Assembly (NCBI GenBank): GCA_963805085.1
Contig: CAWDTA010000002.1
Coordinates: forward strand, 256,001-320,000
From: an uncultured Veillonellaceae bacterium
GTDB lineage: Bacteria > Bacillota > Negativicutes > JARBTT01
Reading direction: 5' to 3'
DNA: 64,000 nucleotides
Shown here: positions 45,431 to 64,000 of the stretch, one piece after another
Layout: each line of letters starts with the position of its first letter
How positions within the stretch are numbered: position 1 is the first letter of the stretch
Notes under the pieces: model-generated
Seen by the model: the letters and a program-made list of their open reading frames with translations, nothing else
Database searches by the model: none
What the model was told of the DNA's origin: nothing
Position numbers and translations under genes: made by a program

Positions 45431-46303
45431 TTATGAATTATCTACTGGTGCTGGCCTTACTGCTTCTAACGCTTGTATAGCCACTTCCACTTGATCGTTG
45501 TCCGGTTGGTTTGTCGTGATTTTTTGCAGCCAAAGGCCTGGTAAAATCGCAACCTTTACAAAAGAATTTTCACTGCGCCCAGCAAAACGAATAATCTCAT
45601 ACGAAATCCCCGCCACAACTGGTAACAATACGATTCTAGACAATATTCTAACCCATAAATCGGGCCATCCTAGAAAAGCAAACATAATAATACTGACAAC
45701 CATTACGATCAATAAAAAAGCCGTACCACAACGCGGATGAAGCGTACTATACCTTTGGACATTCTCTACTGTAAGTTCCACCCCTGCTTCATAGGCATGA
45801 ATGGTCTTATGTTCAGCACCATGATATTGAAATACTCTTTGAATATCCTTCATCCGTGAAATTCCATAGACATAGCCCAAAAAAATCAACATTCTGAGGG
45901 CACCTTCAGCAAGATTCAACCATAGTGGATCATTGATCACACCATGAATATATTTTGCCGCCGCCGTTGGAATGATCACAAATAAAACTATCGCCAATCC
46001 TAGTGAGAACATCATCGTCATCATGATTTCACGATTCGATAGTTCTTCGCCCTCTTCACCAGCACGTTGCGCTGAATAAGATAACGATTTCAATCCTAGA
46101 ATAAGCGATTCTCCTAAAGCTATAACCCCACGCAACATCGGTTTTTTCAATATAGGATATCGCTGAGTTATAGACGAAACTTTTTCTTTTTTTACACTTA
46201 TTTCACCAGACGGTTCGCGTACTGCTGTAGACACATACTCAGGGCCACGCATCATTACGCCTTCAATAACCGCTTGACCGCCAATTGATGGCTTTACTTC
46301 CAC
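45431..46303 (-). CDS. DUF1385 family membrane protein
   Basis: GGQAVIEGVMMR, YHGAEHK, HPRCGT. Confidence 0.9.
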   Translation of the reverse strand: MEVKPSIGGQAVIEGVMMRGPEYVSTAVREPSGEISVKKEKVSSITQRYPILKKPMLRGVIALGESLILGLKSLSYSAQRAGEEGEELSNREIMMTMMFSLGLAIVLFVIIPTAAAKYIHGVINDPLWLNLAEGALRMLIFLGYVYGISRMKDIQRVFQYHGAEHKTIHAYEAGVELTVENVQRYSTLHPRCGTAFLLIVMVVSIIMFAFLGWPDLWVRILSRIVLLPVVAGISYEIIRFAGRSENSFVKVAILPGLWLQKITTNQPDNDQVEVAIQALEAVRPAPVDNS

Positions 46304-46380
46304 GGTATTTCCCCCTATCTAGAAAACTCTCCCCTAAGTACAAATGAAGCAGAGCATTTCTGCTCTGCCAGTCATTCATA

Positions 46381-46578
46381 TTATTGGTTATAACGTTTAT
46401 TGAATTTTTCAATTCTACCGCCAGCTGTGATATCGCGTTGACGACCAGTAAAGAACGGATGGCATTTTGAACATACATCTACATGAAGTTCTGCTTTAAC
46501 GGAACCAGTTGTAAAAGTATTGCCACAACCGCAAACTACTTTAGCTTCTTTGAATTCTGGATGAATTCCTTGTTGCAT
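46381..46578 (-). CDS. rpmE: 50S ribosomal protein L31 (Zn-binding C+ form)
   Basis: [18 protein letters not shown]. Start set at ATG 46578. Confidence 0.97.
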
Positions 46579-46737
46579 AATTTTGTGCACCTCACTCTTA
46601 TCCCAAAATAGGGCTATAATATTTTAAATGCCGAAGCATTTAGATAAGACTTAGCTTCCCATTTTTGGAGGTAAAGCAAGTCGCTCTTGAAAGATAACTA
46701 ATAATGTAACAAACATACTCCTGTTTATTACCAGACA

Positions 46738-46766
46738 ATTATAGCATAACGCAATATTTAGTGCAA
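46738..46766 (-). promoter_or_regulatory. sigmaA promoter of rpmE
   Basis: TTGCAC-N17-TATAAT with a TG extension on the minus strand. Confidence 0.75.
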
Positions 46767-46876
46767 TATACATGTATGAAATAAAAAAAATAAATAATAA
46801 GCACTCTTTCCCATAAAACATAAAATTTTAACAATCTTTTATGCCACTGCTTGATGAAACAAACTAAAATCGTACT

Positions 46877-47140
46877 TTACTTATTTTTTAGTTTATCTAA
46901 TGCTTCCTTAATCTTTAATGCAACCTTTATTGATTCCCACGAGCTAGTTACGATATAGAACGTACCCAGAATCCTAACCCATGAGTTAGTAGCTATCGCT
47001 ATTTCATTTGTCCACTCCGTGATCTGCTTTATCATTGCCTCACTTAACAGTGTATCTGTTTCACTTTCAATTAAGTTAATTATCTCATTTGCTACAGCAT
47101 CTGTATCAGCATCCGTTGCTATTATCTTTGAATCACTCAT
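46877..47140 (-). CDS. Small hypothetical protein (87 aa)
   Basis: Open frame with RBS GGAG 8 nt before ATG 47140; tightly linked to the upstream small ORF. Confidence 0.6.
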   Translation of the reverse strand: MSDSKIIATDADTDAVANEIINLIESETDTLLSEAMIKQITEWTNEIAIATNSWVRILGTFYIVTSSWESIKVALKIKEALDKLKNK

Positions 47141-47154
47141 ATCGAACACTCCAA

Positions 47155-47403
47155 TTATTTATTTAGTAATGGAAGAAGAAGATATAGATTAAATAACCCC
47201 GTTACTGCAGATGTTGCGATAAACGCTGCTACAGGTGCTGATACACCATGATTAACAAGTAATTGCTTGCTAAAACCAATTGCTTTATCTTTTAAATCAT
47301 CCGTACACTCCGTCGTAGATTCTTCCGTTGATTGATGTTCTAATATAATAGCCTTTAACTCCCCCTTAGTCATTGCCTCCAATTGTTCCGCAGTATACTT
47401 CAT
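47155..47403 (-). CDS. Small hypothetical protein (82 aa) with a hydrophobic C-terminus
   Basis: Strong RBS AAAGGAGG before ATG 47403. Confidence 0.7.
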   Translation of the reverse strand: MKYTAEQLEAMTKGELKAIILEHQSTEESTTECTDDLKDKAIGFSKQLLVNHGVSAPVAAFIATSAVTGLFNLYLLLPLLNK

Positions 47404-47524
47404 TCGTAAGCCTCCTTTTTAAGTCTCAACATAAATAAATCATAGTATACCTTATTATATATACTACGATAGCAAGGGGTTACGTTGTTTTGCTATTGGC
47501 TTGATTTAGGAAAGGATTTAAAAT

Positions 47525-47556
47525 ATTTCAATCCATGCATCCGTGAAGGGTGCAAC
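47525..47556 (-). CRISPR. Solitary type I-C-like repeat at the trailer end of the I-B array
   Basis: Minus strand GTTGCACCCTTCACGGATGCATGGATTGAAAT (32 bp) has the I-C hairpin plus TGGATTGAAAT tail; it lies 32 bp from the last I-B repeat. Confidence 0.8.
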
Positions 47557-47788
47557 TAAGTGAGGGGAGACAACGCCAAAAAGCATTTCTTTACATTTCA
47601 TTATGAGTCAATTCGAAGTCATACCCCCATTGAATAATAAGCCCATTAGAAAACTATTTACATTTCATTATGAGTCAATTCGAAGTTGTTGTATTGGATT
47701 ATGCCAATATACAGAATATACCAGATTTACATTTCATTATGAGTCAATTCGAGGTCATAATTAATCAGTATCCTTATATAATAAATTT

Positions 47789-48030
47789 AGGTTAATAAAG
47801 GCAACCTATAATCCTTTATTAACTGACTAATTATACAAACTAATTGTATAATTGGTTTATAGGTAGAGTGATGTCGTTTGTCTCCTTGAGATTTTATCTC
47901 GTTATCGAAAGACTGACGCCTCTGTCTGTCTAACTGTTTACGAATAAGTTGGATGTTGGCTTTTATTTGAAGCACTTCGTATCTGCGATAAGTCGGTAAC
48001 GTTATTCAGATTAGAGGAACCTATCTAAAT
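47789..48030 (+). ncRNA. Putative IS110 bridge RNA
   Basis: Non-coding left end downstream of the junction -10 (47777-47782). Contains 5' hairpins (GTTAATAAAGG/CCTTTATTAAC; AATTATACAA/TTGTATAATT) and two internal loops with segments matching the target and donor junction. Boundaries approximate. Confidence 0.65.
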
Positions 48031-48051
48031 AAATTCTTTTAGGTGATTTTT

Positions 48052-49227
48052 ATGTTCTATCTCGGTATTGATATTGGTAAAAATACACATGTTGCTTCTC
48101 TCATGGACGAGAACGGTAAAACTGTCTTCAAAGCCTTTAGCTTCCCCAATTCAACTGATGGCGGTAACAATCTTTTAGATAAAATTGCTTCAGTTTCTTC
48201 TGTTGAAATCGGTATGGAAGCTACGGGCCATTATTGGCTTTCTCTTTACTCTTTTCTTGTTGAACACGGTTTCGTTGTCCATGTTATCAATCCGATCCAA
48301 ACAGACGGCTGGCGCAAAGGTACTGAAATCAGAAAACGTAAAACAGATATCATTGATTCTGTTTTAATTGCCGACTTCATCCGCTATGGTAAGTTCCTGG
48401 AAACATCCTTAGCAGATGAAAATATGCTTTCTTTACGCAATCTTTCCCGCTTTAGAAATTATCTTGTCAGTTCTATCGGCGATTTAAAAAGAAAAGCCAT
48501 CTGCGTTTTAGACCAAATTTTCCCTGAGTATCAAACTGCATTTTCTAACGTCTTTGGAAAAACTTCTAAGGAAATTCTTTTGCAGTTAAGCTCTCCTACC
48601 GAGTTTGAAAATGTTACGTCTACTCAGCTTGAAGATATTCTCTCTCAAATTACTTTCAAACGGTTTGCAGCTAAGAAAATCAACAGTATATCTACTTTGG
48701 CTAAAACTTCTTTTGGTATTACTTTCTACTTGGAAAGTCTAACTTTTAAACTTAAACTTCTGATTGAGCAAATTAATTTTATTGAAAAACAAATTATAGA
48801 TGTTGAAGCTCAAATAAAAGTGCTGCTAGAAAAAATTAATTCACCTATTACTACAGTCCCCGGAATAGGGGTGGTAAATGCCGCCACTATTCTTGGTGAA
48901 ATCGGTGACATTAACAAATTCAGCAATCCCTCTAAACTTGTTGCTTATGCTGGCATTGATGCGTCTGTTTGTCAATCTGGTGAATACCAAAGTACGACCA
49001 ATAAAATGAGTAAACGAGGTTCGCCCTATTTGAGAAAGGCGTTGTTTCAATCTGCCTTGATTGCAGCCACTCACGATCCTGTATTTAAGGCTTATTACCA
49101 AAAGAAACGTTCTGAAGGTAAACATCATTTAACTTGCCTTGGAGCAGTTGCCCGTAAACTTTGTTATACGATTCATGCTATTCTAAAAAATAACTGTGCT
49201 TACGAGGTACAGTTGCCTAGAGAGTAA
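48052..49227 (+). CDS. IS110 family DEDD recombinase/transposase
   Basis: GIDIGK, GMEATG and KTDIIDS (D-E-D-D); C-terminal domain with VPGIG, AYAG, QSG serine and SKRG...LR. Confidence 0.96.
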   Translation: MFYLGIDIGKNTHVASLMDENGKTVFKAFSFPNSTDGGNNLLDKIASVSSVEIGMEATGHYWLSLYSFLVEHGFVVHVINPIQTDGWRKGTEIRKRKTDIIDSVLIADFIRYGKFLETSLADENMLSLRNLSRFRNYLVSSIGDLKRKAICVLDQIFPEYQTAFSNVFGKTSKEILLQLSSPTEFENVTSTQLEDILSQITFKRFAAKKINSISTLAKTSFGITFYLESLTFKLKLLIEQINFIEKQIIDVEAQIKVLLEKINSPITTVPGIGVVNAATILGEIGDINKFSNPSKLVAYAGIDASVCQSGEYQSTTNKMSKRGSPYLRKALFQSALIAATHDPVFKAYYQKKRSEGKHHLTCLGAVARKLCYTIHAILKNNCAYEVQLPRE

Positions 49228-52200
49228 TACAACTTTCAAGTATTTCTTTTTCGGCCTGCAAAAACAGGTCTATTTGTTTTGCATAAATATTGATGTTACT
49301 TCCCTAATTTTTATCGATTTTCTCTATTGACTTTTTATAGTTGGTCTTTCTCACATATAGCCCACATTTACATTTCATTATGAGTCAATTCGAAGTGGTG
49401 AAAAAGAAGAGAATGACCTCTATCCCGGTACTATTTACATTTCATTATGAGTCAATTCGAAGTGGCGCACGGAGCGCACACCATACTTGAAAGAACCAAA
49501 TTTACATTTCATTATGAGTCAATTCGAAGTGAGGTAATACTCCAGTGAAGCAGTAGTAACTGGTACATTTACATTTCATTATGAGTCAATTCGAAGTATC
49601 GTTAACATCTACTAAGCCTTCATTTATTATCCAATTTACATTTCATTATGAGTCAATTCGAAGTTGAAAGAGCTTGGGCTGTTTGCGACAGATCCAGACG
49701 AATTTACATTTCATTATGAGTCAATTCGAAGTGTGTCAAAGTTGTTTTTAGTTATAATAATCACTCCTATTTACATTTCATTATGAGTCAATTCGAAGTT
49801 TTGTTTCCTTTTATCGAAATATGTATTAATTGGGTAAATTTACATTTCATTATGAGTCAATTCGAAGTTGCTGATCTAGTTCATCCCAAACTCTTTGAGT
49901 ATCATTTACATTTCATTATGAGTCAATTCGAAGTTATCTTTTCCACCGCTAAATGCTACATAGTAACCCTCATTTACATTTCATTATGAGTCAATTCGAA
50001 GTGTCCTTTGAGTAACACGAGCGATAACCTTTGAGTAATTTACATTTCATTATGAGTCAATTCGAAGTGCTATACTTAAACAAAAATGAGAGGTGATTTA
50101 ATTAATTTACATTTCATTATGAGTCAATTCGAAGTCGGTGCAGTGACATGGCGCATACGTGATTTGAAAAGATTTACATTTCATTATGAGTCAATTCGAA
50201 GTAATGCGAGTATTCAGCCTACTATTACGATTAGACCTATTTACATTTCATTATGAGTCAATTCGAAGTGCTACTGATGCTCATGCAAAAGCAGAAGCTA
50301 CAAGATTTACATTTCATTATGAGTCAATTCGAAGTCGGTAGCCGCAATAGCGTTAATATGTTCCCTTCGGCAATTTACATTTCATTATGAGTCAATTCGA
50401 AGTCAGGTTTAATAAAATGTCCTAATTGCGGTAAAACCAATTTACATTTCATTATGAGTCAATTCGAAGTTTACGTATTCGACTGGCGCTAATGGATCTT
50501 TATCTACATTTACATTTCATTATGAGTCAATTCGAAGTTCCGCCAATCGGTTTGCATAATCCCGAATAATCATATTTACATTTCATTATGAGTCAATTCG
50601 AAGTTTCTTTTGCTTCTCTGACTTGCACCTGGCAAAACCTATTTACATTTCATTATGAGTCAATTCGAAGTAAGGCTGGAAACACGATTGAAGTAACCGA
50701 CTATGTATCATTTACATTTCATTATGAGTCAATTCGAAGTATTGTATGGAGATTCAACGACGGGAACGATTTATTTATTTACATTTCATTATGAGTCAAT
50801 TCGAAGTAGGAATGGCAACTGGCTTGGAGGGATTGTTCCCTAATTTACATTTCATTATGAGTCAATTCGAAGTGTCTAAATCTAAATTACCTAGCATTTT
50901 CTTTCCTCCATTTACATTTCATTATGAGTCAATTCGAAGTCTGCTGGAGCAACAAGAACAATGGCTGTTGGGCAAATTTACATTTCATTATGAGTCAATT
51001 CGAAGTCTTCTGCTGTAGGTAGTGACCAAGGCTTTTGTTCTATATTTACATTTCATTATGAGTCAATTCGAAGTTATGCAATCAAATACATCACCGCAAG
51101 CGGAATCCTCATTTACATTTCATTATGAGTCAATTCGAAGTGCCATGACCGACCCATTAAACAAGACTGCTTATGCTGATTTACATTTCATTATGAGTCA
51201 ATTCGAAGTGTACTGGTTCTCTAGCACCTAAATCAACCATAGCTCATTTACATTTCATTATGAGTCAATTCGAAGTAGGGTCAAAACGAATGAATCTGAG
51301 AACACGTTGGTCATTTACATTTCATTATGAGTCAATTCGAAGTTAGACAAGGTAAGGACGCTATGCAACAAGTATCGAAATTTACATTTCATTATGAGTC
51401 AATTCGAAGTTGGCGGCATAAATGCCCAAATTGCGGAGAGTTTCACATTTACATTTCATTATGAGTCAATTCGAAGTTTGTCTTTCTCTGATTGCCCATT
51501 CAGGCAATTTAATATTTACATTTCATTATGAGTCAATTCGAAGTGGGGAATTTGTCTTAGCACTTGATTGTAGTATTGCGATTTACATTTCATTATGAGT
51601 CAATTCGAAGTACTAGGGTTAATTGTAAATTCGACATTATTCATTGATTTACATTTCATTATGAGTCAATTCGAAGTCTGGTCAACAGTAAATACAAGGA
51701 TTGATATTCCAGCATTTACATTTCATTATGAGTCAATTCGAAGTCTTTAGCGCATTACACCGATTTACAAGGGGTGTCGAATTTACATTTCATTATGAGT
51801 CAATTCGAAGTCAAACAAGGGGAAACAATTGCACAATATTTTCACAAATTTACATTTCATTATGAGTCAATTCGAAGTCAAATAATTCACTAATTTTAAT
51901 GGTTTTTCGTTCTTCATTTACATTTCATTATGAGTCAATTCGAAGTTTTATTGATGCGCGAGATATTGCAAAGTTTGCTTTATTTACATTTCATTATGAG
52001 TCAATTCGAAGTGGCTGGATGGAGTATCATACCCCACGGTAGTTCCAGATTTACATTTCATTATGAGTCAATTCGAAGTTTTATGTTGGACAACCGATTG
52101 GTGGTACAGGTATTCATTTACATTTCATTATGAGTCAATTCGAAGTAGCACCGACTATTATTATATCTGATGAGTTTCACCAATTTACATTTCATTATGA

Positions 52201-55200
52201 GTCAATTCGAAGTGGATTTAAAAACTACTAAATCAATCATAGAATTTGCAATTTACATTTCATTATGAGTCAATTCGAAGTAGGACTTGTCCAATCCTTG
52301 GGAGGGATAATAGTAGGATTTACATTTCATTATGAGTCAATTCGAAGTTCAACTACTTCTCCAGCAAACTCTTTGATTTTTTCATTTACATTTCATTATG
52401 AGTCAATTCGAAGTTCGTTATCTAATGTAACCTTCGCTTTTGACTCCTTGATTTACATTTCATTATGAGTCAATTCGAAGTATATGGTGGTGGCGGTGGT
52501 GGTGTAGCAGCTTTAAAATTTACATTTCATTATGAGTCAATTCGAAGTCAGATGTGATCCTGGTTATTATCATTTTACCAAAGAAATTTACATTTCATTA
52601 TGAGTCAATTCGAAGTTTAACCGATGAAACCATAAAACACTATCGAATTGGCATTTACATTTCATTATGAGTCAATTCGAAGTAAGATAAGAAAAATAAT
52701 CCACCGCTACGATATCTATATTTACATTTCATTATGAGTCAATTCGAAGTACCGACCCCACAGAAATCCCAGGATTCCACATTATCATTTACATTTCATT
52801 ATGAGTCAATTCGAAGTTATTTCTTTATTTTTGCTTGTATTCCCTTCGTTACTTATTTACATTTCATTATGAGTCAATTCGAAGTCCGCTTGTAATCCAT
52901 TCATTGTATTTTTGTTCGAGCATTTACATTTCATTATGAGTCAATTCGAAGTTTTACATTGCTATAGCCAACAGCATAATAAGCACCAATTTACATTTCA
53001 TTATGAGTCAATTCGAAGTCTATACCCCCGAAGCCCAAAACCTAATCCTAAACCAATTTACATTTCATTATGAGTCAATTCGAAGTCTGAGGAAGGGAAC
53101 ACAGTTAAATGCAAGTTAGATTGATTTACATTTCATTATGAGTCAATTCGAAGTCTTGTAATCACTCGCTGCTTTTGTTTTTCTGATTTCATTTACATTT
53201 CATTATGAGTCAATTCGAAGTAATATTCAAAAGATACTAAAGCAATCAGATGAAATCATTTACATTTCATTATGAGTCAATTCGAAGTTTTTTCGATTGG
53301 TGGTTCGCCGCGAACGATACGGACATTTACATTTCATTATGAGTCAATTCGAAGTTAATGTCACACTCAAAAACGCAACAATATTATCCGTATTTACATT
53401 TCATTATGAGTCAATTCGAAGTTTAAAAAAGGCAACCACTTTCTAATCTCACTAACCAAATTTACATTTCATTATGAGTCAATTCGAAGTGGGTGATTCG
53501 GTTGTAATCAATGATGAAGGGCGTCCATTTACATTTCATTATGAGTCAATTCGAAGTACATCAATAAACGTCAATTTAAACATATTTAATAAACATTTAC
53601 ATTTCATTATGAGTCAATTCGAAGTGAAAGAAGGTGAAGCGATGTTAAGAGAGCAGAAAACATTTACATTTCATTATGAGTCAATTCGAAGTCAAGTGCA
53701 TTTTTCCATACGGATTTGTTTTCTACATTTACATTTCATTATGAGTCAATTCGAAGTATTTGGGATGTTGTTTAATTCCACGTTAGAAAGTACATTTACA
53801 TTTCATTATGAGTCAATTCGAAGTTGAAGATTGTTTGAAAGGCATGAAAAAGATTGATGAATTTACATTTCATTATGAGTCAATTCGAAGTTCCTGTATT
53901 GCTACTGCCTGACTGTACTCCGGTATATTTACATTTCATTATGAGTCAATTCGAAGTTCAACCGTTAAGTTGTCGCTTGGATGCAAGTTAGTAACATTTA
54001 CATTTCATTATGAGTCAATTCGAAGTTACATCTTTTAAAACTTCCTCTATATCTCTTTTCAAATTTACATTTCATTATGAGTCAATTCGAAGTGTAGTTA
54101 CTGCGTTTAAGTATCATATCGACGTAAGATTTACATTTCATTATGAGTCAATTCGAAGTTGTCACTCGTAGCAATGCCTTACTATCTGTTGCAACATTTA
54201 CATTTCATTATGAGTCAATTCGAAGTCCTACGAAAGGAGCTGAATAAATGAGTGAAATAAATTTACATTTCATTATGAGTCAATTCGAAGTATTTGGAAC
54301 AAGTGAAGATAGATTTTTGCACATAGATTTACATTTCATTATGAGTCAATTCGAAGTCCAGGCTGCTTTTCTTATGACCGCCTCATTAAGCTCATTTACA
54401 TTTCATTATGAGTCAATTCGAAGTCTCCGTATCTAGACAATGTCCTAGGCTGATAATTAATTTACATTTCATTATGAGTCAATTCGAAGTACCGTCACGT
54501 TGTACAGGTGCTAGTCCTACTTTTTCATTTACATTTCATTATGAGTCAATTCGAAGTGTACGTGCTGTATAACCCAAGTATTGATAATACACATTTACAT
54601 TTCATTATGAGTCAATTCGAAGTGCGTCTTTACCGTTTCTTTGTTTGGCTTGGTTCCATATTTACATTTCATTATGAGTCAATTCGAAGTATGGTCAACG
54701 CGAAGTATTTAAACTATTGATAATCGAATTTACATTTCATTATGAGTCAATTCGAAGTCCCGATGCCATCCATATCGGCTAACTGTTGATACTATTTACA
54801 TTTCATTATGAGTCAATTCGAAGTAATTAAAGAATCACAGAAAATTCCAAGCGTTTCTCATTTACATTTCATTATGAGTCAATTCGAAGTTATTGTTGTT
54901 GTTTATATTAGTATCATTAGCTTTCACATTTACATTTCATTATGAGTCAATTCGAAGTTTCCGAAAAAGATGCAGTGGCGCAAGCAGTATATACAATTTA
55001 CATTTCATTATGAGTCAATTCGAAGTCCTATCAAAATCAGTTAAATCAATCAATGCATGATCATTTACATTTCATTATGAGTCAATTCGAAGTATACAGA
55101 AATTATTCATTTGCGCCGTCACTTTAACCGCATTTACATTTCATTATGAGTCAATTCGAAGTTAAAATGCTTTGTGAAAGCTCCTTAATTTCTACTTGAT

Positions 55201-57259
55201 TTACATTTCATTATGAGTCAATTCGAAGTAAGTGACCATATAGAAGCAAACCCGACTATCTCACATTTACATTTCATTATGAGTCAATTCGAAGTCATCG
55301 GTTTTCACCTTACGCTTGATTGTAATATTTATATTTACATTTCATTATGAGTCAATTCGAAGTAACTTAACAATAATATAGTCTAATTTACATAATACAA
55401 ATTTACATTTCATTATGAGTCAATTCGAAGTTTGTAATTTTTTCCCCATATAATCACCTCTTTAAGGCATTTACATTTCATTATGAGTCAATTCGAAGTT
55501 GCATCGGTATTAACAACTAAATTCCTTCCAACTAAATTTACATTTCATTATGAGTCAATTCGAAGTACAATGCAAAAGATGATGTATTCTGTGTCATTAC
55601 TAGATTTACATTTCATTATGAGTCAATTCGAAGTGATACAAGTGTAATCATCTTTTCTAAATCCATAACAATTTACATTTCATTATGAGTCAATTCGAAG
55701 TTCAGTTTCTTTGATCTTACTGGTAAGGGTTGCAACTTCATTTACATTTCATTATGAGTCAATTCGAAGTGGTCCACCTTTAGGCAATAAAAACGCACTT
55801 GGTAATAAATTTACATTTCATTATGAGTCAATTCGAAGTCCTTACCAGTAAAAGCACAAAAAGCAATATTTTCTCATTTACATTTCATTATGAGTCAATT
55901 CGAAGTAAAATCTTCGTAACATTCGCGGTCATCGGCACACACATTTACATTTCATTATGAGTCAATTCGAAGTGTTTAGGATATTCAGCCGATGAACTAG
56001 TTTCTATATTTACATTTCATTATGAGTCAATTCGAAGTTTGATAAAGAAAAATTCAAGGAATCGGTTGAACGCGGATTTACATTTCATTATGAGTCAATT
56101 CGAAGTCAGGTGGAACAAAGTGCATGAATCGGATATTATCCACATTTACATTTCATTATGAGTCAATTCGAAGTAGTAGTTGCAGGCATTCCGCGTTGTC
56201 GCATAACCAGATTTACATTTCATTATGAGTCAATTCGAAGTTTGAATACCAGTATTACCAGTAGCACCTTGTATTCCTATTTACATTTCATTATGAGTCA
56301 ATTCGAAGTGTATGTTTGGATTAGCTCAAGGTGTTTCGAATAAAACATTTACATTTCATTATGAGTCAATTCGAAGTGCAATTATCACAGGGATTTCACA
56401 AGCAAATAAATTATCATTTACATTTCATTATGAGTCAATTCGAAGTTTATCTTGTGTACCGTCTCGGACTTCGTAATACTCATTTACATTTCATTATGAG
56501 TCAATTCGAAGTCCAACAGGAAATGTTATTGCGTAGCCACCAGCCTTATTTACATTTCATTATGAGTCAATTCGAAGTGCAACCCATACTTGCGAAGTAT
56601 TCACTAAATTTAAATTTACATTTCATTATGAGTCAATTCGAAGTTTTATAATGTGTGTCGACAAATTAATACTTTTATCAATTTACATTTCATTATGAGT
56701 CAATTCGAAGTGCCCCAATCTTCAGCGATGAAACCTGTGTCTCCATCATTTACATTTCATTATGAGTCAATTCGAAGTTCTGATAGCCAAGATAATATTT
56801 AAAGCCCTTCTGAAATTTACATTTCATTATGAGTCAATTCGAAGTTCGATTAAATTGATTGTTGAAGAACTCGGACCTAAATTTACATTTCATTATGAGT
56901 CAATTCGAAGTTGAAAAACATCATAAACCCCACGTTCACGTGTATTAATTTACATTTCATTATGAGTCAATTCGAAGTTCCAGGCTACCGTAGCTTTGGT
57001 AATAGCCTGTAGCGTATTCATTTACATTTCATTATGAGTCAATTCGAAGTAACGGCTTTCGCGATTGTAGAAATGTGTTTTCCGCCATTTACATTTCATT
57101 ATGAGTCAATTCGAAGTTTTACTTGCCCATAACTATAGTTATAAACGCTAATATATAAGTGAGCCACTAAAGCATAAAATGCTCACGAAAAAATGAGCCA
57201 CCTTAAATAAAATAACCTTTAAAATAGACTTAATGAAGTTTATTTTGGAGGGATAAAAG

Positions 57260-58693
57260 GTGGTAATCACATTGGAAGACTATGCTGAAATACGCAGGCT
57301 TTTTAATTCCGGTATCAGCAAACGCGCCATCGCCAGAAAGCTTGGTATATCCAGAAATACAGTAGATAAATATTGCCAAGGCGATACGGTTCCGTGGAAC
57401 AGAAAAATATACACTCGTCAGTCTTCAATCATCAGTGATGAAGTAATGGATTTCATTCGCCAATGCTTAGAAGATGATGAACGCGAAGGCATTCGTAAAC
57501 AGAAACATACCGCCAAGCGAATATTTGATCGTCTAGTTGATGAATGTAACTTTACCGGCGGTGAAAGCACTGTTCGGCGAACTGTCAATCAGCTAAAAGT
57601 GCAGGTGCAAAAGCCTTTTATTCCCCTAGAATTTGCTCCTGGTGAGGCACTTCAAATTGATTGGGGTATTGCTAAAATATATTTAAATGGGCACAAAATG
57701 GACATAAATTTGTTTTGTGCTAGACTCTGTTCCAGTGATGCGCCTAGCGTTTTTGCTTTTGAAAGGCAAAATGAAGAAAGTTTTCTTGAAGCTTTGGTAC
57801 GTACCTTCCAGTATTTTGGCGGAATTGCCAGACGTGTATTCTTTGATAATGCAAAAGTAGCTGTAAAAGAAGGATTTGGCTCACGTGCTATTAAACAAGC
57901 CCGGTATGCAGCTCTTGCAGCGCATTATGGATTTGAAACTGTTTTTTGCAATCCAGCGGAAGGGCACGAAAAAGGTTTAGTTGAAGGACTAGTCGGCTGG
58001 GCTAGGCGCAACATCTTAGTGCCCATTCCAAAAGTTGAAAGCCTTGGAGAATTAGATGCTCTGCTCTTAGAGCGGTGTAATACATACCTGAATCACACAG
58101 TTAGAGGCAAAACGTCCAATGTTGGAAAGTTGCTTGCATTTGAAAAGAATGCGCTGCTGAAAATGCCAAGTTATGTATTTGATACAAGCCGCAGTATTAC
58201 TACAAATGTAGATAGTTATTGTACTGTTCGTTTTGACACGAATAACTATTCTGTACCAATCTCCCATTGCGGTCACGAAGTGGCGGTAAAAGGTTATGGT
58301 ACAAAAGTTGTAATCTACTACCACAATGCAGTGATTGCCAAACACAACCGCTGTTATGGCAAGAAACAAACAATTTATGAACTAGCTCATTATCTTCCTC
58401 TTCTGGAGAGAAGACCACGTTCTATCTTAAATGCAAAACCAGTAAGACATGCTTTACCACAGGATATATTGGAATGGTTAGCTAGTTTACCAGTAAAAGA
58501 AATTATGAAAGCATTAAATCTTTGTGTTGAGCTTGGCGTAAATGCGATTGTAGACGCCAAACGCCAAGGGATACCGCTTGATGCTGTATGCACTAAAAGA
58601 GAACCAGCAACTACGATCATTGATAAAATCACCGTGAAACCAACAGATTTATCATTGTATGATCGTTTGTTAAGAACAGAGGCTGCCTTATGA
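57260..58693 (+). CDS. istA: IS21 DDE transposase
   Basis: N-terminal HTH (SKRAIARKLGISRNTV), QIDWG, FDNAK, EKGLVE, NNYSVP. Confidence 0.95.
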   Translation: MVITLEDYAEIRRLFNSGISKRAIARKLGISRNTVDKYCQGDTVPWNRKIYTRQSSIISDEVMDFIRQCLEDDEREGIRKQKHTAKRIFDRLVDECNFTGGESTVRRTVNQLKVQVQKPFIPLEFAPGEALQIDWGIAKIYLNGHKMDINLFCARLCSSDAPSVFAFERQNEESFLEALVRTFQYFGGIARRVFFDNAKVAVKEGFGSRAIKQARYAALAAHYGFETVFCNPAEGHEKGLVEGLVGWARRNILVPIPKVESLGELDALLLERCNTYLNHTVRGKTSNVGKLLAFEKNALLKMPSYVFDTSRSITTNVDSYCTVRFDTNNYSVPISHCGHEVAVKGYGTKVVIYYHNAVIAKHNRCYGKKQTIYELAHYLPLLERRPRSILNAKPVRHALPQDILEWLASLPVKEIMKALNLCVELGVNAIVDAKRQGIPLDAVCTKREPATTIIDKITVKPTDLSLYDRLLRTEAAL

Positions 58694-59433
58694 ATAGTAC
58701 AATTCATGAGAGCATTAAACTATATGCCAAGCTATTAAAATTGCCCAGTTTTACGCAATATCAAGATGTGATTCGTCAGCTAAAACCCAATATGGGATTA
58801 GATGAAATGCTCTTGGAACTTATGAAAAAAGAATACCATTCACGGCAAGACAACCAATTAAAAAGGCGAATTCATACCGCGCATTTTCCTGTAACCAAAA
58901 CATTGGAAGAACTGAATATGTCTTGCTTCGAAAACATAAAACCGATATTTGTTCAGCAGTTGGCATCCTGTGACTTTATTAAAAAACGAAGAAATATCAT
59001 AATGATTGGACCGCCTGGAACCGGTAAAACTCATCTGGCAATCGGTCTGGGGATGAAAGCCTGTGCATGTGGTTTTCGCGTGATGTTTCGTAGCGCTGCG
59101 ACGATCTCCACTGAACTTTGTGAAGCCAAAGATGCCTACAAACTATCTAAATTAGAAAAGACTATTGAAAAAACAGATTTACTCATACTTGATGAACTAT
59201 CCTATCTAAGCTTTAACCGCCACCAATCTGATCTACTATTTAAGGTCGTTTCAGAGCGCTCTGAGCGAGCTAGTATCATAGTTACCACAAACCTAGAGTT
59301 TTCACGTTGGACGGAGATGTTCGAAAATGAAACAATGGTAGCGGCCCTGGTTGACCGGCTTACATTTCGATCACATTTATTGGATATGAACGGTTCCTCG
59401 TACAGAGTAAATCATGCTATTGCTAACGATTAG
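58690..59433 (+). CDS. istB: IS21 AAA+ helper ATPase
   Basis: GPPGTGKTHLA, LLILDEL, VTTN, ALVDRL; overlaps the istA stop by 4 bp. Confidence 0.96.
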   Translation: MNSTIHESIKLYAKLLKLPSFTQYQDVIRQLKPNMGLDEMLLELMKKEYHSRQDNQLKRRIHTAHFPVTKTLEELNMSCFENIKPIFVQQLASCDFIKKRRNIIMIGPPGTGKTHLAIGLGMKACACGFRVMFRSAATISTELCEAKDAYKLSKLEKTIEKTDLLILDELSYLSFNRHQSDLLFKVVSERSERASIIVTTNLEFSRWTEMFENETMVAALVDRLTFRSHLLDMNGSSYRVNHAIAND

Positions 59434-62045
59434 GTGGCTCAAATATTCATGAGCACAAGTGGTTTAAAATTTCATGAGCGAGTGGCTCACTTTTTCATTG
59501 ACGTTTATACTATAGTCTTAAAAATAAAGCATTTACATTTCATTATGAGTCAATTCGAAGTTTTAACGCTTGATTCAGAACAAGAAAGTTACTATAACAT
59601 TTACATTTCATTATGAGTCAATTCGAAGTCAAATTGGACGTAGTTTGACGCAAGTATTAGATACATTTACATTTCATTATGAGTCAATTCGAAGTCAATG
59701 ATTAATGTTTGCCATTTGTGTATTTCAGGGTAATTTACATTTCATTATGAGTCAATTCGAAGTGCCTGCACCTGGATTAGAACCATTCATAACAAACTCA
59801 TTTACATTTCATTATGAGTCAATTCGAAGTTCACAGCTGGAGTTGCAGCAAATCCACCGTTGCTAATTTACATTTCATTATGAGTCAATTCGAAGTTTAA
59901 TAATATTCTTCATATAGGTTTCCCCTTTTCTAATTTACATTTCATTATGAGTCAATTCGAAGTCGTATATTTTAATGTCGTTCCAAGTATCTTTGCTGCA
60001 TTTACATTTCATTATGAGTCAATTCGAAGTTTGAAAATAGAAACATTACTTCTATTGAGTTTAAAAAATTTACATTTCATTATGAGTCAATTCGAAGTGC
60101 CAATATACACCATCAAGCTGACCTAAGATGCCGACATTTACATTTCATTATGAGTCAATTCGAAGTGTTGCTATTGCAGTAAAACAATATGTAATTCGCA
60201 AATTTACATTTCATTATGAGTCAATTCGAAGTTGAATACAGCAAGAGCACAGTTTCGTGATATTTATAAATTTACATTTCATTATGAGTCAATTCGAAGT
60301 GTCGATGGCCATATTCCATCAGGACACGACATTCTTCATTTACATTTCATTATGAGTCAATTCGAAGTTATGATAGGTGAAGCTATTGTAATTAGTCCTC
60401 AGAAATTTACATTTCATTATGAGTCAATTCGAAGTCGATGGCATTTTGTTTTGTGGTGCTAGTCGCGTACTGATTTACATTTCATTATGAGTCAATTCGA
60501 AGTATACAATCAACTATATTATCAGCGCATTGATACATTAATTTACATTTCATTATGAGTCAATTCGAAGTGCTGACAGCCAACGACTGTGTAATGTGCC
60601 ATCAAAAATTTACATTTCATTATGAGTCAATTCGAAGTGATATATATTTCTGCCAAGCACAAGACATTATATCCATTTACATTTCATTATGAGTCAATTC
60701 GAAGTTCTATATTTTGCAAGTATAATACCGCCATAGAATAAATTTACATTTCATTATGAGTCAATTCGAAGTCGTATGGGAAGATATTGTCGAGATTGCA
60801 AAAGGTACATTTACATTTCATTATGAGTCAATTCGAAGTTGCCGCGCTCGTTTCTTTTGTATTGTAAACACGCCCATTTACATTTCATTATGAGTCAATT
60901 CGAAGTGACATCCGCTCTTGATACTTTGATATCAACATCCTCATTTACATTTCATTATGAGTCAATTCGAAGTGAAACAATAAAAAAATCTATATCAGTG
61001 AATGATACAAATTTACATTTCATTATGAGTCAATTCGAAGTTTGAGAACCCCAGAAGAGCGTGCAGGAATATTGAATATTTACATTTCATTATGAGTCAA
61101 TTCGAAGTACGTACATATTGTTAATTAAAAGAGAAAATCAACCATTTACATTTCATTATGAGTCAATTCGAAGTTTGAACTGCGGTAATAACGGAATTAT
61201 AGATATCTTGATTTACATTTCATTATGAGTCAATTCGAAGTGTTTGAGTATTCGGAGCTGTAAGCATCCGAGATAAATTTACATTTCATTATGAGTCAAT
61301 TCGAAGTCTAATTGTGACTACTACGTCTACCACGTCATTTAAATTTACATTTCATTATGAGTCAATTCGAAGTATTACTTCGCCCGCAAGAAACAGACTC
61401 TGTTATTAAATTTACATTTCATTATGAGTCAATTCGAAGTCGGGCAAGCAAAGCCAATACCTTTATGGGCTGGCAAATTTACATTTCATTATGAGTCAAT
61501 TCGAAGTAAAGACACTATTTGTTATGGCTCTTATCCTATAGACATTTACATTTCATTATGAGTCAATTCGAAGTACAGTATTTCGCTGAATAGTATGTTA
61601 AGCGCTGCTATATTTACATTTCATTATGAGTCAATTCGAAGTGCTGGTGCAGTGATCTTACCAATGAATGAACATTCATTTACATTTCATTATGAGTCAA
61701 TTCGAAGTGTGTTTCTTCGGGGTCATAACCACCAGACAATCTACATTTACATTTCATTATGAGTCAATTCGAAGTATATCCGTTGTACCATAAACCGTAT
61801 AAGGTGAATAAATTTACATTTCATTATGAGTCAATTCGAAGTAGATAAAAGAAAAATGAAAGCGGGGCGGAATTATGAATTTACATTTCATTATGAGTCA
61901 ATTCGAAGTTTGGCGTAGCTGTCTGGAACGCATCTTGGGTAAATAAATTTACATTTCATTATGAGTCAATTCGAAGTTCCGGGAAATCGAATTGATTACC
62001 ATGTGATTACAAACATTTACATTTCATTATGAGTCAATTCGAAGT

Positions 62046-62235: not shown

Positions 62236-62514
62236 TCATACAAAGTTTGAGGTTTTATCCTCTTCTTTTATGATAAATTCTTTTTTCATCCATATATTAT
62301 TTCGCCCCGTAAAAATTATACAAGAATCAATCTCTTCCCGCAAATGTTCTTTAACTTCTACCTTTAAATTCATCAATTGACTTTCTGATAACTCTCCTTC
62401 AAACACCGAATTTTGGATATGCGTCAAATATTTCTTGCAAATTTTAAAAACACGTCTTAATACTTTCTGTCCACCTTTATCCAACTTTATATCATATACC
62501 AGCACCATATACAA
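62236..62514 (-). CDS. cas2: CRISPR-associated Cas2
   Basis: LVYDI, KKYLTHIQNSVFEGE. Confidence 0.97.
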   Translation of the reverse strand: MYMVLVYDIKLDKGGQKVLRRVFKICKKYLTHIQNSVFEGELSESQLMNLKVEVKEHLREEIDSCIIFTGRNNIWMKKEFIIKEEDKTSNFV

Positions 62515-62521
62515 AGTAATA

Positions 62522-63514
62522 TCACCACCAAATCCTAAAAGCCTTATATGTATCAGCGCCCATCACATGTTTAATTAGTTTGTATACTTCCAAACGAATC
62601 AAGTGATTGTAGGAAACTTCACGATTTAAGCTTCTATGTTTAATACTTGTCTTCAATTTAGCATCCAATGCTTCCATGATTTTTTTCGCAACAGAATCTT
62701 TCATGCGAATACAATCTACATCTTTGTCAAAATCATTTTCATCAATAATCTTTTTATTTAGCAATGAAAAAATTAAACGATCTGCGAGCAACGGTTTAAA
62801 AATTTCCGCAACATCCAATGCCAAAGAAAAGCGTTTTACCGACGGTTCATGCAAATAGCTAATTGTTGGATTTGCCTGCGTTTTGTAAATTTCACTTAAT
62901 ACCTTTGTATAAATAATTGAATTAACAAAAGAAATCAAGGTATTGATCATATTATCTGGTGGTCTTTTCGTCCGTTTTTCAAAATCAATTTCTACATCAA
63001 TAATCGTGTCCCATGCACTATAATATATTTTTCTAATATTTCCCTCTATCCCCATAAGTTCTTGTACGTCTTTACAATAAGGAATATGCGTACTTAATAC
63101 TTTTATCTCATCCATATACGAAGATAAATCTTTTCCTCGTGCATTATAGTAGCGCAAATTTCGATAGATATTATCATAAGCACCGGATATAAATTCTCGC
63201 GCAATTTCCATTCTTTTTTCGTTGTCGGTATAATGCTCAACCTGTTTTACTAATAGTGAACCCGATACATGTTTTTCCCTCGGGCAAAAACTTCCGGTAT
63301 AAAATTCATAATAATTAAAGAAATGTACCATTACACCATTTTGCGCCAAAAAATCAAGCAATTTTGTATTTAACGTCATTTCTGAAAAAATGTAAATATC
63401 CTTTACACGCTCTATCGGAATATCCTTATTCATTCCATCCTCACGACATAGCTGCAATGAATTATCTTTACGTTTGATGTGTCCATTAGAAAAAACATAA
63501 TAAGATTGTTTCAT
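62522..63514 (-). CDS. cas1: CRISPR-associated Cas1, type I-B-like
   Basis: HFFNYY..Y.GSF, LMGIEG, RPPDN..N..ISF.N, ISYLHEP..RFSLALDVAEIFKP, YKAFRIWW. Confidence 0.97.
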   Translation of the reverse strand: MKQSYYVFSNGHIKRKDNSLQLCREDGMNKDIPIERVKDIYIFSEMTLNTKLLDFLAQNGVMVHFFNYYEFYTGSFCPREKHVSGSLLVKQVEHYTDNEKRMEIAREFISGAYDNIYRNLRYYNARGKDLSSYMDEIKVLSTHIPYCKDVQELMGIEGNIRKIYYSAWDTIIDVEIDFEKRTKRPPDNMINTLISFVNSIIYTKVLSEIYKTQANPTISYLHEPSVKRFSLALDVAEIFKPLLADRLIFSLLNKKIIDENDFDKDVDCIRMKDSVAKKIMEALDAKLKTSIKHRSLNREVSYNHLIRLEVYKLIKHVMGADTYKAFRIWW

Positions 63515-63539
63515 GTAAGCTGCCTCATTTCAAGATATT

Positions 63540-64000
63540 TTAGATATAACAAAATTCATAGTATGCACATGATTTACATGCAGGTTTATCAATGATCTGC
63601 GGTAAATTTGCTTCTGCTAAAATTTCTTTTATCAATTTCAAGTTAGTTTCTACTGTTTCCATGTCCTCTTCTGTCAAAAAAACTTCTTCCGTTAAATGCT
63701 CCTTCGGAACAGCCAGCATCCCCTTAATATCTTTCAAACCGTGTTTATGTAAAACATAGAGATAATATTTAATCTGATTAATCGCCATCTGTTTTTCTTT
63801 TTTACTTTTCTTCACTTCATAAACAATACCATTGTGAATATAGTCAATGTTAATACAATCATCTACCAGAATATGTTTTCGTTCGCGACTATAAGAAGTC
63901 TCATCAATGATTTTGCCAATCTGCACATGTTCATTCTCATCTTCTAAGCTAATATCATGTGCATATAACCACATTTTGCGTGTACATAAAAAATAGTAAG
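63540..64000 (-). CDS. cas4: CRISPR-associated Cas4, 5' end outside the window
   Basis: The frame continues upstream as YYFLCTRKMW; EVKKS, QIKYYLY and C-terminal CKSCAYYEFC Fe-S cluster motif. Confidence 0.95.
   Translation of the reverse strand, partial: YYFLCTRKMWLYAHDISLEDENEHVQIGKIIDETSYSRERKHILVDDCINIDYIHNGIVYEVKKSKKEKQMAINQIKYYLYVLHKHGLKDIKGMLAVPKEHLTEEVFLTEEDMETVETNLKLIKEILAEANLPQIIDKPACKSCAYYEFCYI

Follow-up and report, generated by a model that had tools for sequence, protein, structure and literature searches.

Introduction

The closest described counterparts of the element considered here, an insertion sequence (IS) of the IS110 group lodged in a CRISPR array of an uncultured Veillonellaceae bacterium, are the bridge-RNA elements typified by IS621 of Escherichia coli. 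According to Durrant et al., 85.7% of IS110s have a predicted bridge RNA (PMC11208160), and a promoter formed across the joined ends of the element has been described for the family both by them and by Siddiquee et al. (PMC11187229). For IS621 itself, the published account includes a model of handshake guides (PMC11208158), the pairing of which modulates strand exchange (PMC11208158; PMC13626964); single mismatches are tolerated, as is a mismatch at donor position 7 (PMC11208160); and chromosomal copies relied for their excision on transcription reading through into the left end (PMC13626964). CazIS110-1, from Caloranaerobacter azorensis (Clostridia), has been tested experimentally, and its report describes a bridge RNA of ~170 nt, many genomic copies, abundant transcripts comprising the target-binding stem-loop (TBL) only and a copy-out route (10.1101/2025.10.25.684509).

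Against this background, we analyzed a stretch of 64,000 nt (hereafter the window; contig CAWDTA010000002.1 of assembly GCA_963805085.1, positions 256,001 to 320,000 of the forward strand), which bears an IS110-group element at its positions 47775-49345. We consider it very probable that this is a complete IS110-group bridge-RNA element that was inserted by RNA-guided recombination at a CT core into a spacer near the trailer end of the array. It provides a natural example of a bridge-RNA element, each guide of which could be placed by covariation. A preceding interpretation of the same DNA, made from its letters and translated reading frames (the sequence-only reading), had assigned guides to the target and donor halves; the assignment of one of the donor guides is corrected here.

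A CRISPR spacer split by an IS110-group element

In a repeat search of the window, a 31-nt repeat present 157 times, where none is expected by chance, delineated a CRISPR array at 47589-62045. Its spacers are 36 nt (78 spacers), 37 nt (36), 35 nt (28), 38 nt (8), 34 nt (3) or 41 nt (1) in length, and two of its units are interrupted, one of 2413 nt with an IS21-type element inside and one of 1610 nt with the IS110-group element inside. The latter unit is flanked by the repeats at 47725-47755 and 49366-49396, and upon subtraction of the 1573-bp insertion it leaves a spacer of 37 nt, the second commonest length in the array. The insertion and the pieces of the spacer on either side of it are arranged as follows:

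47756-47772, + strand: left spacer piece, ending in GTATC (47768-47772), the left target (LT)
47773-47774, + strand: CT core of the left junction, between LT and the right donor (RD)
47775-49345, + strand: IS110-group insertion sequence, from the right donor to the left donor (LD); ends kept in relatives; 1573 bp including one CT core
49346-49347, + strand: CT core of the right junction, between LD and the right target (RT)
49348-49365, + strand: right spacer piece, beginning with TTC, the RT

Read across, the split unit runs ...GTATC, CTT, 1.57 kb, ...GTTGGT, CTT, TCTCAC..., with CTT present at both junctions (47773-47775 and 49346-49348). The sequence-only reading had placed an IS110 element in the middle of a spacer, and both the restored 37-nt spacer and the CTT at the two junctions bear this out; the motifs that it cited likewise lie where it had put them.

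Relatives were gathered by a scan with one genome per species, which yielded 600 candidate stretches and at least 562 relatives; the best 80 of these were kept, and they show 59-78% protein identity and come almost entirely from Bacillota. Profiles of the two ends, run with nhmmer, fixed the left boundary in 73 of 82 loci; in 68 the right boundary was placed as well, and 64 distinct left ends formed the basis of the alignment. Nearly all the delimited loci share one anatomy, with ...CCTT followed by (A/G)TATAAT at the left and ...AGTT(G/A)GTCTT followed by TC... at the right. There is no target-site duplication, CT being found once per junction in the window and in nearly all the delimited loci. 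Further, since in two loci (L013 and L074) the right flank starts with A after CT, with a matching change in the RNA, the common core is CT rather than CTT, and the next T belongs to the right half of the donor.

The genome is metagenome-derived, 83% complete and 6% contaminated, and IS copies often assemble as lone contigs of ~1.6 kb, as seen in many relatives and once in metagenome run X1. Thus, there is the formal possibility that a repeated IS contig was mis-joined into the CRISPR array and that the split spacer is an artefact of assembly. We give this very little credence: both junctions display the exact family anatomy (a guide-like LT, the CT and an RT of TTC); the spacer pieces sum to a normal 37 nt, which is not expected of a chance mis-join; and 42 differences (over 1581 nt in X1) set the window copy apart from the abundant metagenome variant. 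The reading as a genuine insertion into a spacer is hence the one we carry forward.

To the right of the array lie genes for Cas2, Cas1 and Cas4 on the - strand (62236-63974), the effector genes being outside the window. All of the repeats are perfect except for two at the left, number one and number three (47589 and 47725). We infer that the leader of the array is on the right, that its transcription proceeds on the - strand and that the old trailer end lies at the left; the IS110 element would accordingly be oriented opposite to the transcription of the array. Just three spacers, those nearest the trailer end, lie beyond the insertion, and the CRISPR location of the element is probably of little consequence.

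The recombinase and the joined ends

The protein-coding and transcriptional features of the element are:

48052-49227, + strand: recombinase gene, 391 aa, with D7, E56, D99, D102 and S309
47777-47782, + strand: -10 box TATAAT of the junction promoter, which is complete only in the circular form
49327-49332, + strand: -35 box TTGACT of the junction promoter
49253-49270, + strand: terminator-like hairpin followed by a T-run, 3' of the recombinase stop, from a consensus scan

The 391-aa open reading frame (ORF) matches PF01548 (8.9e-45) and PF02371 (7.4e-26) and scores 248.1 bits, against a cut-off of 140, with the NCBIfam model NF033542, 'IS110 family RNA-guided transposase'. Its matches in the PDB include IS621 (8wt6_A, E = 3.9e-23) and ISCro4 (9t56, E = 2.5e-21). 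In the alignment with 8wt6_A, D7, E56, D99, D102 and S309 correspond to D11, E60, D102, D105 and S241 of IS621, the residues that are named as catalytic in PMC11208158; the ORF and all five predicted catalytic residues are therefore intact.

Upstream of the gene stands a noncoding left end of 276 nt, and the right end comprises 121 nt. When the two ends are joined in silico, TTGACT and TATAAT come to lie 17 bp apart, which confirms the spacing given in the sequence-only reading for the junction promoter, and TTGACT or TTGACC lies at exactly this distance from the -10 box in 46 of the 47 distinct joined ends of relatives. The -10 hexamer at these 47 junctions is TATAAT in 38 cases, TATATT in seven and another hexamer in two.

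Predicted structure of the bridge RNA

The left end of the window copy folds with a z-score of -4.88 relative to 200 shuffles. On the 64 distinct left ends, the alignment of which is now available for the lineage, RNAalifold predicts 28 pairs, with compensatory changes in 19. A defined structure of 59 pairs is 83.9% paired as against 72.5% in shuffled alignments (none of 500 as high), whereas the same structure with its 3' partners slid by 1-3 columns is 39-47% paired; compensatory changes are seen in 40 of the 59 pairs. In particular, pairing in the helices of the target and donor stem-loops amounts to 85-100%, and 22 of their 31 pairs show compensatory changes. From 5' to 3' the structural elements are:

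47788-47808, + strand: 5' hairpin 1 (TAGGTT/AACCTA); helix 1, 91.8% paired, compensatory changes in 2 of 6 pairs
47825-47857, + strand: 5' hairpin 2, with a 14-bp stem in the window copy; helix 4, 61% paired, compensatory changes in 10 of 14 pairs
47865-47923, + strand: target-binding stem-loop; helices 5-7, 98.4-98.8% paired, compensatory changes in 8 of 13 pairs; outer stems 47865-47868/47920-47923 and 47872-47875/47915-47918, inner hairpin 47887-47891/47897-47901
47925-48010, + strand: donor-binding stem-loop (DBL); helices 8-10, 94.1%, 100% and 84.9% paired, compensatory changes in 14 of 18 pairs; outer stems 47925-47928/48007-48010, 47931-47934/48001-48004 and 47938-47941/47996-47999, inner hairpin 47958-47963/47969-47975

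A transcript from the junction promoter is predicted, from the position of the -10 box, to start at ~47789, and the distance from there to the end of the donor stem is ~222 nt. Hairpin 2 lies in a poorly aligned region and overlaps the internal promoter-like site described below. The inner hairpin of the target loop is present where the sequence-only reading had located it, and its helix covaries. The GAATAA/TTATTC helix, by which the same reading had closed the donor loop, has to be given up: it is paired in 57.0% of cells as against 56.9% in shuffles and shows no compensatory change.

In the 5' leader, 47794-47801 could pair with 47813-47820 as an H-type pseudoknot that interleaves with hairpin 1, a candidate that was considered and dropped: the alignment is poor there, and its helices (2 and 3) are 62-78% paired and contain many unpaired cells.

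Guides and their covariation with targets and donors

To map the guides, the loop bases of each element were compared with its own flanks, the flanks of other elements serving as the control (2000 shuffles). The guides and candidate guides, in the order of the RNA, are:

47880-47886, + strand: left target guide (LTG), GTCTC plus the core CT; T47887 opens the inner stem
47907-47911, + strand: right target guide (RTG), GAAAG, the complement of CT plus TTC
47912-47913, + strand: candidate target-loop handshake guide, AC, complementary to donor positions 6-7 (GT), by analogy with IS621
47947-47952, + strand: left donor guide (LDG), AGTTGG, equal to donor positions 1-6 (49339-49344)
47988-47992, + strand: right donor guide (RDG), ATAAG, the complement of CT plus TAT
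47993-47994, + strand: candidate donor-loop handshake guide, TC in the window, GC or GT in relatives

At the four variable positions of the LTG, identity with the left flank is 0.59, 0.79, 0.87 and 0.92 as against 0.29, 0.32, 0.66 and 0.74 in shuffles, a level reached by none of the 2000 (61 distinct pairs). One position further out the agreement is marginal (0.44 versus 0.34; 64 of 2000 shuffles), and there is no signal beyond. For the RTG, tested on 58 distinct pairs with few variants, identity at positions 3-5 is 0.95, 0.91 and 0.93 as against 0.88, 0.85 and 0.82 in shuffles (reached by 2, 5 and 0 of 2000), and the signal ends at position 5. The sequence-only reading had named GTCTCCTT (47880-47887) as the left and GAAAG as the right target guide and had called for a comparison of guides and targets across other copies; that comparison, made on the flanks of the relatives, supports both guides, with the refinement that the last T of GTCTCCTT starts the inner stem.

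On the donor side, the RDG is ATAAG or ACAAG, and its position 4 tracks the A or G at base 2 of the right half of the donor (47776) in 43 of 43 distinct pairs, as against 0.53 in shuffles (0 of 2000 reaching this agreement), at one variable column; here too the original assignment, ATAAG, holds. It is otherwise with the left donor guide, which the sequence-only reading had itself flagged as its weakest part and which is indeed the one of its four guides that was wrong. The donor loop has an inner hairpin that covaries (helix 10), and its 5' arm is the 3' part (47958-47963) of the GTTGGCTT then proposed (47955-47962). We replace GTTGGCTT with AGTTGG, which shows covariation with the right end: the base at its fifth position, G or A, is the same as in that end in all 68 rows and all 19 distinct pairs, an agreement reached by none of 2000 shuffles, again at one variable column. 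The two bases that follow the LDG (AT) match neither donor position 7 nor the C of the core in any of the sequences.

The dinucleotide after the RTG is AC in 46 and AG in 18 of the 64 distinct left ends, such that its first base is A in all 64 and complementary to the invariant T of donor position 7. The donor GT (positions 6-7) is the same in 19 of 19 distinct pairs and hence affords no variation for a covariation test. The base after the RDG, G in 63 of the 64 distinct left ends, is complementary to target position 7, which is C in 59 of 61 left flanks. By analogy with IS621, the unpaired donor position 7, seen in all 19 pairs, and the conserved G after the RDG would fit the handshake model.

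If the element works in the manner of IS621, we may picture its action as follows. It would excise as a circle, upon which the joined TTGACT-17-TATAAT promoter would drive the bridge RNA and the recombinase; AGUUGG and AUAAG would hold the donor junction; and a tetramer of the recombinase would exchange strands at CT via Ser309. The element may be both programmable and active.

A structured RNA ahead of a gene might instead be a mere 5' leader that regulates translation of the recombinase, with the protein choosing the target. The loop bases, however, change with the flanks and with the element ends, at the positions and in the polarity of IS621, none of which a leader predicts; the architecture with two internal loops is conserved; and NCBIfam files the protein as an RNA-guided transposase. 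It is true that the bridge RNA is here a prediction from sequence, that a single-sequence fold puts the AGGTG ribosome-binding site in a hairpin just before the ATG, and that no Rfam family was matched at E <= 1 in 46000-51000, a result that is uninformative on the RNA. On balance, we regard the leader as a most improbable explanation and retain that of a bridge RNA.

Copies, relatives and signs of mobility

A sister copy on another contig of the same genome (L002) is 83% identical to the window element, has an intact ORF and carries a guide, CTCTCCTT, that equals its own flank, CTCTCCTT, at 8 of 8 positions. It lies (C1:297524-302101) between a NarJ-like (nitrate-reductase delta) and a NarI-like (gamma) gene, antisense to both, and since the NarJ-like ORF now ends within the right end of the IS, a polar effect on narI is likely. 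The genome holds nine matches to PF01548 on three contigs; three of them have identical scores and 447-aa frames (C1:356159, C3:48079 and C3:104761), which indicates that a different IS110-family element is multicopy in this genome.

An element ~97% identical to that of the window is found in contigs from soil and wetland metagenomes, where at least three different sequences adjoin it on the right. These contigs match only 47771/47772-49351/49353 and diverge beyond. Three contigs of X1 are alike only in the terminal 30 nt of the right end and the CTTTCT after them, one more such contig comes from X3, and the left flank in X2 shows a ribosome-binding site and an ATG on the opposite strand. The several diverging flanks imply that the lineage occupies multiple sites in environmental samples.

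Some of the relatives show further arrangements that deserve mention. At L071:1215-1228 the same IS contributes its right end as the left flank (TGATAGTTGGTCTT, then the left end), and this is either a pair of copies in tandem or a circle junction caught by the assembly; at L061:547-560 there is a comparable flank, with an imperfect likeness to the right end. One metagenome-derived genome (L047, L063-L068) has seven copies with a single guide (..GCCTCCTT) at seven different sites, all of which have CCTCCTT in common while the G of the guide is matched at one only; this pattern points to ~4 nt plus the core as the stretch effectively recognized on the left side. Finally, a plasmid collection holds 92 records with distant IS110 relatives (60-80% identity), mostly from Bacillus and Enterococcus; none of these 92 records names an IS, all being annotated 'IS110 family transposase'.

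Shine-Dalgarno-like targets and an internal promoter-like site

The family consensus target, (T/C)CTC-CT-TTC, is the complement of GAAAGGAG, and thus the relatives in most cases insert immediately 5' of a Shine-Dalgarno site, in antisense orientation to the gene. After insertion upstream of a gene, AAGGAG is recreated at the junction. Of the 58 distinct left flanks that reach 200 nt, 37 have on the opposite strand, at 5-18 nt from the junction, a start codon that begins an ORF of 60 codons or more, as against 422 of 2650 random positions in those flanks that satisfy the same criterion, a crude control. We take the consensus to correspond in sense to the anti-Shine-Dalgarno tail of 16S rRNA; the ends of 16S rRNA genes were considered as targets and rejected, none of the 61 distinct left flanks being alike when compared by eye with the motif of such ends.

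Read on the - strand, the split spacer of the window shows AAGGAT and then an ATG 17 nt from the junction (locus row L001), and it was probably hit because this Shine-Dalgarno-like GAAAGGAT and the ATG were present. We infer that the spacer is a captured gene start. The effective recognition of the target is short, ~4-5 nt plus CT plus 3 nt. The targeting of Shine-Dalgarno sites by IS110 elements is unstated in the portions of 10.64898/2026.10.21.760802, PMC11187229 and PMC11952509 covered here, with supplements and ISfinder outside that scope.

Within the left end there is a second promoter-like site:

47823-47852, + strand: internal promoter-like site CTGACT-18-TATAAT, 10 of 12 matches; the same bases take part in hairpin 2

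A -10-like hexamer stands at this site in all 64 relatives (TATAAT in 31, GATAAT in 27, TATACT in 4 and GAAAAT in 2). The best -35-like hexamer at 16-18 nt from it matches at five of six bases in 22 relatives (all at 17 nt), at four of six in nine and at fewer in 33, with a mean best match of 3.58 as against 2.44 at control offsets. As a hypothesis, a transcript from this site would start a few bases before the target stem, so that the internal promoter would yield a short bridge RNA and the junction promoter the long form. Since an antisense orientation denies the element sense read-through, the lineage may carry its own promoter inside the left end. The neighboring ORFs to the left of the window element are on the - strand, and a promoter scan found no promoter facing out of the left end (- strand, ~47776-47860) by which the host gene beyond it might be driven.

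We tentatively propose, at what we would judge to be slightly short of an even chance, that this is a Bacillota-wide lineage with a target loop tuned to the ribosome-binding site and its own internal promoter, for which CRISPR spacers acquired from the ribosome-binding site of a phage are collateral targets. If so, the consequences would be several: (i) short guides homing to Shine-Dalgarno sites would constitute a natural, abundant and gene-proximal class of target that affects operon polarity, as exemplified by the sister copy between the narJ-like and narI-like genes; (ii) the internal promoter may explain how bridge RNA is supplied for the excision of integrated copies, a question raised for IS621 (PMC13626964); and (iii) the patterns at the handshake positions would be of interest to the study and engineering of bridge recombinases.

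Standing of the window copy

In addition to the state of the genome assembly and the blank Rfam search mentioned above, the following observations weigh against a complete element inserted by RNA-guided recombination: (i) the shuffles used in the covariation tests ignore phylogeny, and the signals of the RTG, LDG and RDG come from few variable columns and probably reflect few evolutionary events; (ii) the LT of the window departs from the LTG at one position, with A at 47770 against C in the guide; (iii) the base after the RDG (47993) is T solely in the window copy, and the contigs of four metagenome runs have G there; (iv) the window element exists as a single exact copy in its genome; (v) none of the sequencing runs listed was of RNA, and the contigs of metagenome runs X1-X4 contain, in the parts that they cover, no joint representing a circle junction or an empty site; and (vi) a DNA search with 47560-47775 in 41 genomes (its own and 40 relatives) returned no uninterrupted spacer, the matches being only to CRISPR repeats, of its own genome and of G004.

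A number of these points would also suit a genuine IS110 member that is now a stranded and immobile copy, left with an imperfect site, subsequent drift and no sense transcription in its place. The element is single in the genome, the other copy being just 83% identical; it alone has T at 47993, where 63 of 64 distinct relatives and the metagenome contigs have G; its guide and target disagree at one position; and it lies antisense to the array, with the ORFs to its left on the - strand, while excision of IS621 needed read-through (PMC13626964). Still, we think it unlikely, if worth keeping in mind, that the copy is stranded, as the ORF is intact with all catalytic residues kept, every structural helix is intact, the conserved internal promoter-like site could supply RNA without read-through, and IS621 tolerates single mismatches (PMC11208160). 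The word 'intact', which the sequence-only reading had applied to the element, thus holds for the ORF and the catalytic residues but needs a qualifier in view of the private T at the conserved handshake position. With this qualifier, a complete bridge-RNA element remains our preferred reading. The homing to Shine-Dalgarno sites, the possible internal promoter and the private handshake change are all worth following.

Other features of the array

The second interrupted spacer of the array is split by the IS21-type element (57118-59530), which has CTATAG at both sides and leaves pieces that sum to ~36 nt. It codes for an IstA-like protein (57260-58693), with Mu-transposase C-terminal and HTH domains, and for IstB (58690-59433; PF01695, 5.5e-60), and it separates the 38 cas-proximal repeats from the other 119. 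To the left of the array, 47519-47552 has the look of a repeat of another CRISPR type; it occurs once in the genome, with up to 5 mismatches allowed, so that the segment is probably nothing.

Comparison with known systems

The IS1111 group, with its seekRNA (Siddiquee et al. 2024, PMC11187229), shares with the window element the type of transposase, RNA-guided choice of target, a circular intermediate and a junction promoter. In its members, as described there, the noncoding region lies downstream of the gene and the inverted repeats are subterminal. No guide RNA is apparent downstream of the recombinase in the window element: the covarying RNA is upstream, and the 121-nt right end has only the terminator-like hairpin and the -35 box. 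The 276-nt noncoding region upstream of the gene together with the 121-nt right end thus marks it as being of the IS110 and not of the IS1111 type. CazIS110-1, compared through its description in 10.1101/2025.10.25.684509, is likewise of the IS110 group with a TBL and a DBL. The transposase of ISCro4 (PDB 9t56) is the second structurally solved relative by sequence and is as distant as that of IS621.

With IS621 (PMC11208160, PMC11208158) the likeness extends across several levels: (i) both domains of the protein and the DEDD and Ser residues; (ii) an RNA encoded in the left end upstream of the gene, with the order 5' hairpin(s), target loop and donor loop; (iii) left guides in the sense of the top strand and right guides as its complement; (iv) a CT core, no target duplication and a sigma-70 type promoter across the joined ends; and (v) in the relatives, a base after the RTG that pairs with donor position 7 and a base after the RDG that pairs with target position 7, donor position 7 being unmatched by the LDG.

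The differences are as instructive. The similarity of the proteins is distant, being confined to two local matches of 31 and 53 bits, and the bridge RNA of IS621 is 177 nt in length as against ~222 nt from the predicted start in the window element. IS621 targets REP-type repeats, unlike the window lineage, the natural target of which is Shine-Dalgarno-like. The LTG has 5(-6) nt plus CT, whereas that of IS621 has 9 nt in all; the RTG has CT plus 3 as opposed to CT plus 2; the RDG is a contiguous CT plus 3 in place of a split guide; and the LDG has 6 nt without a match to the core as against 8 nt (PMC11208158). Moreover, two hairpins precede the target loop where the IS621-type consensus of Durrant et al. 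(PMC11208160) has one, so that the sequence-only reading was reasonable in speaking of an extra 5' hairpin. At the level of its sequence, then, the element displays every feature by which the IS110 bridge-RNA group is recognized, and, given the share of IS110s with predicted bridge RNAs and the 'RNA-guided' name of its NCBI family, it is best seen as a further member of a known family.

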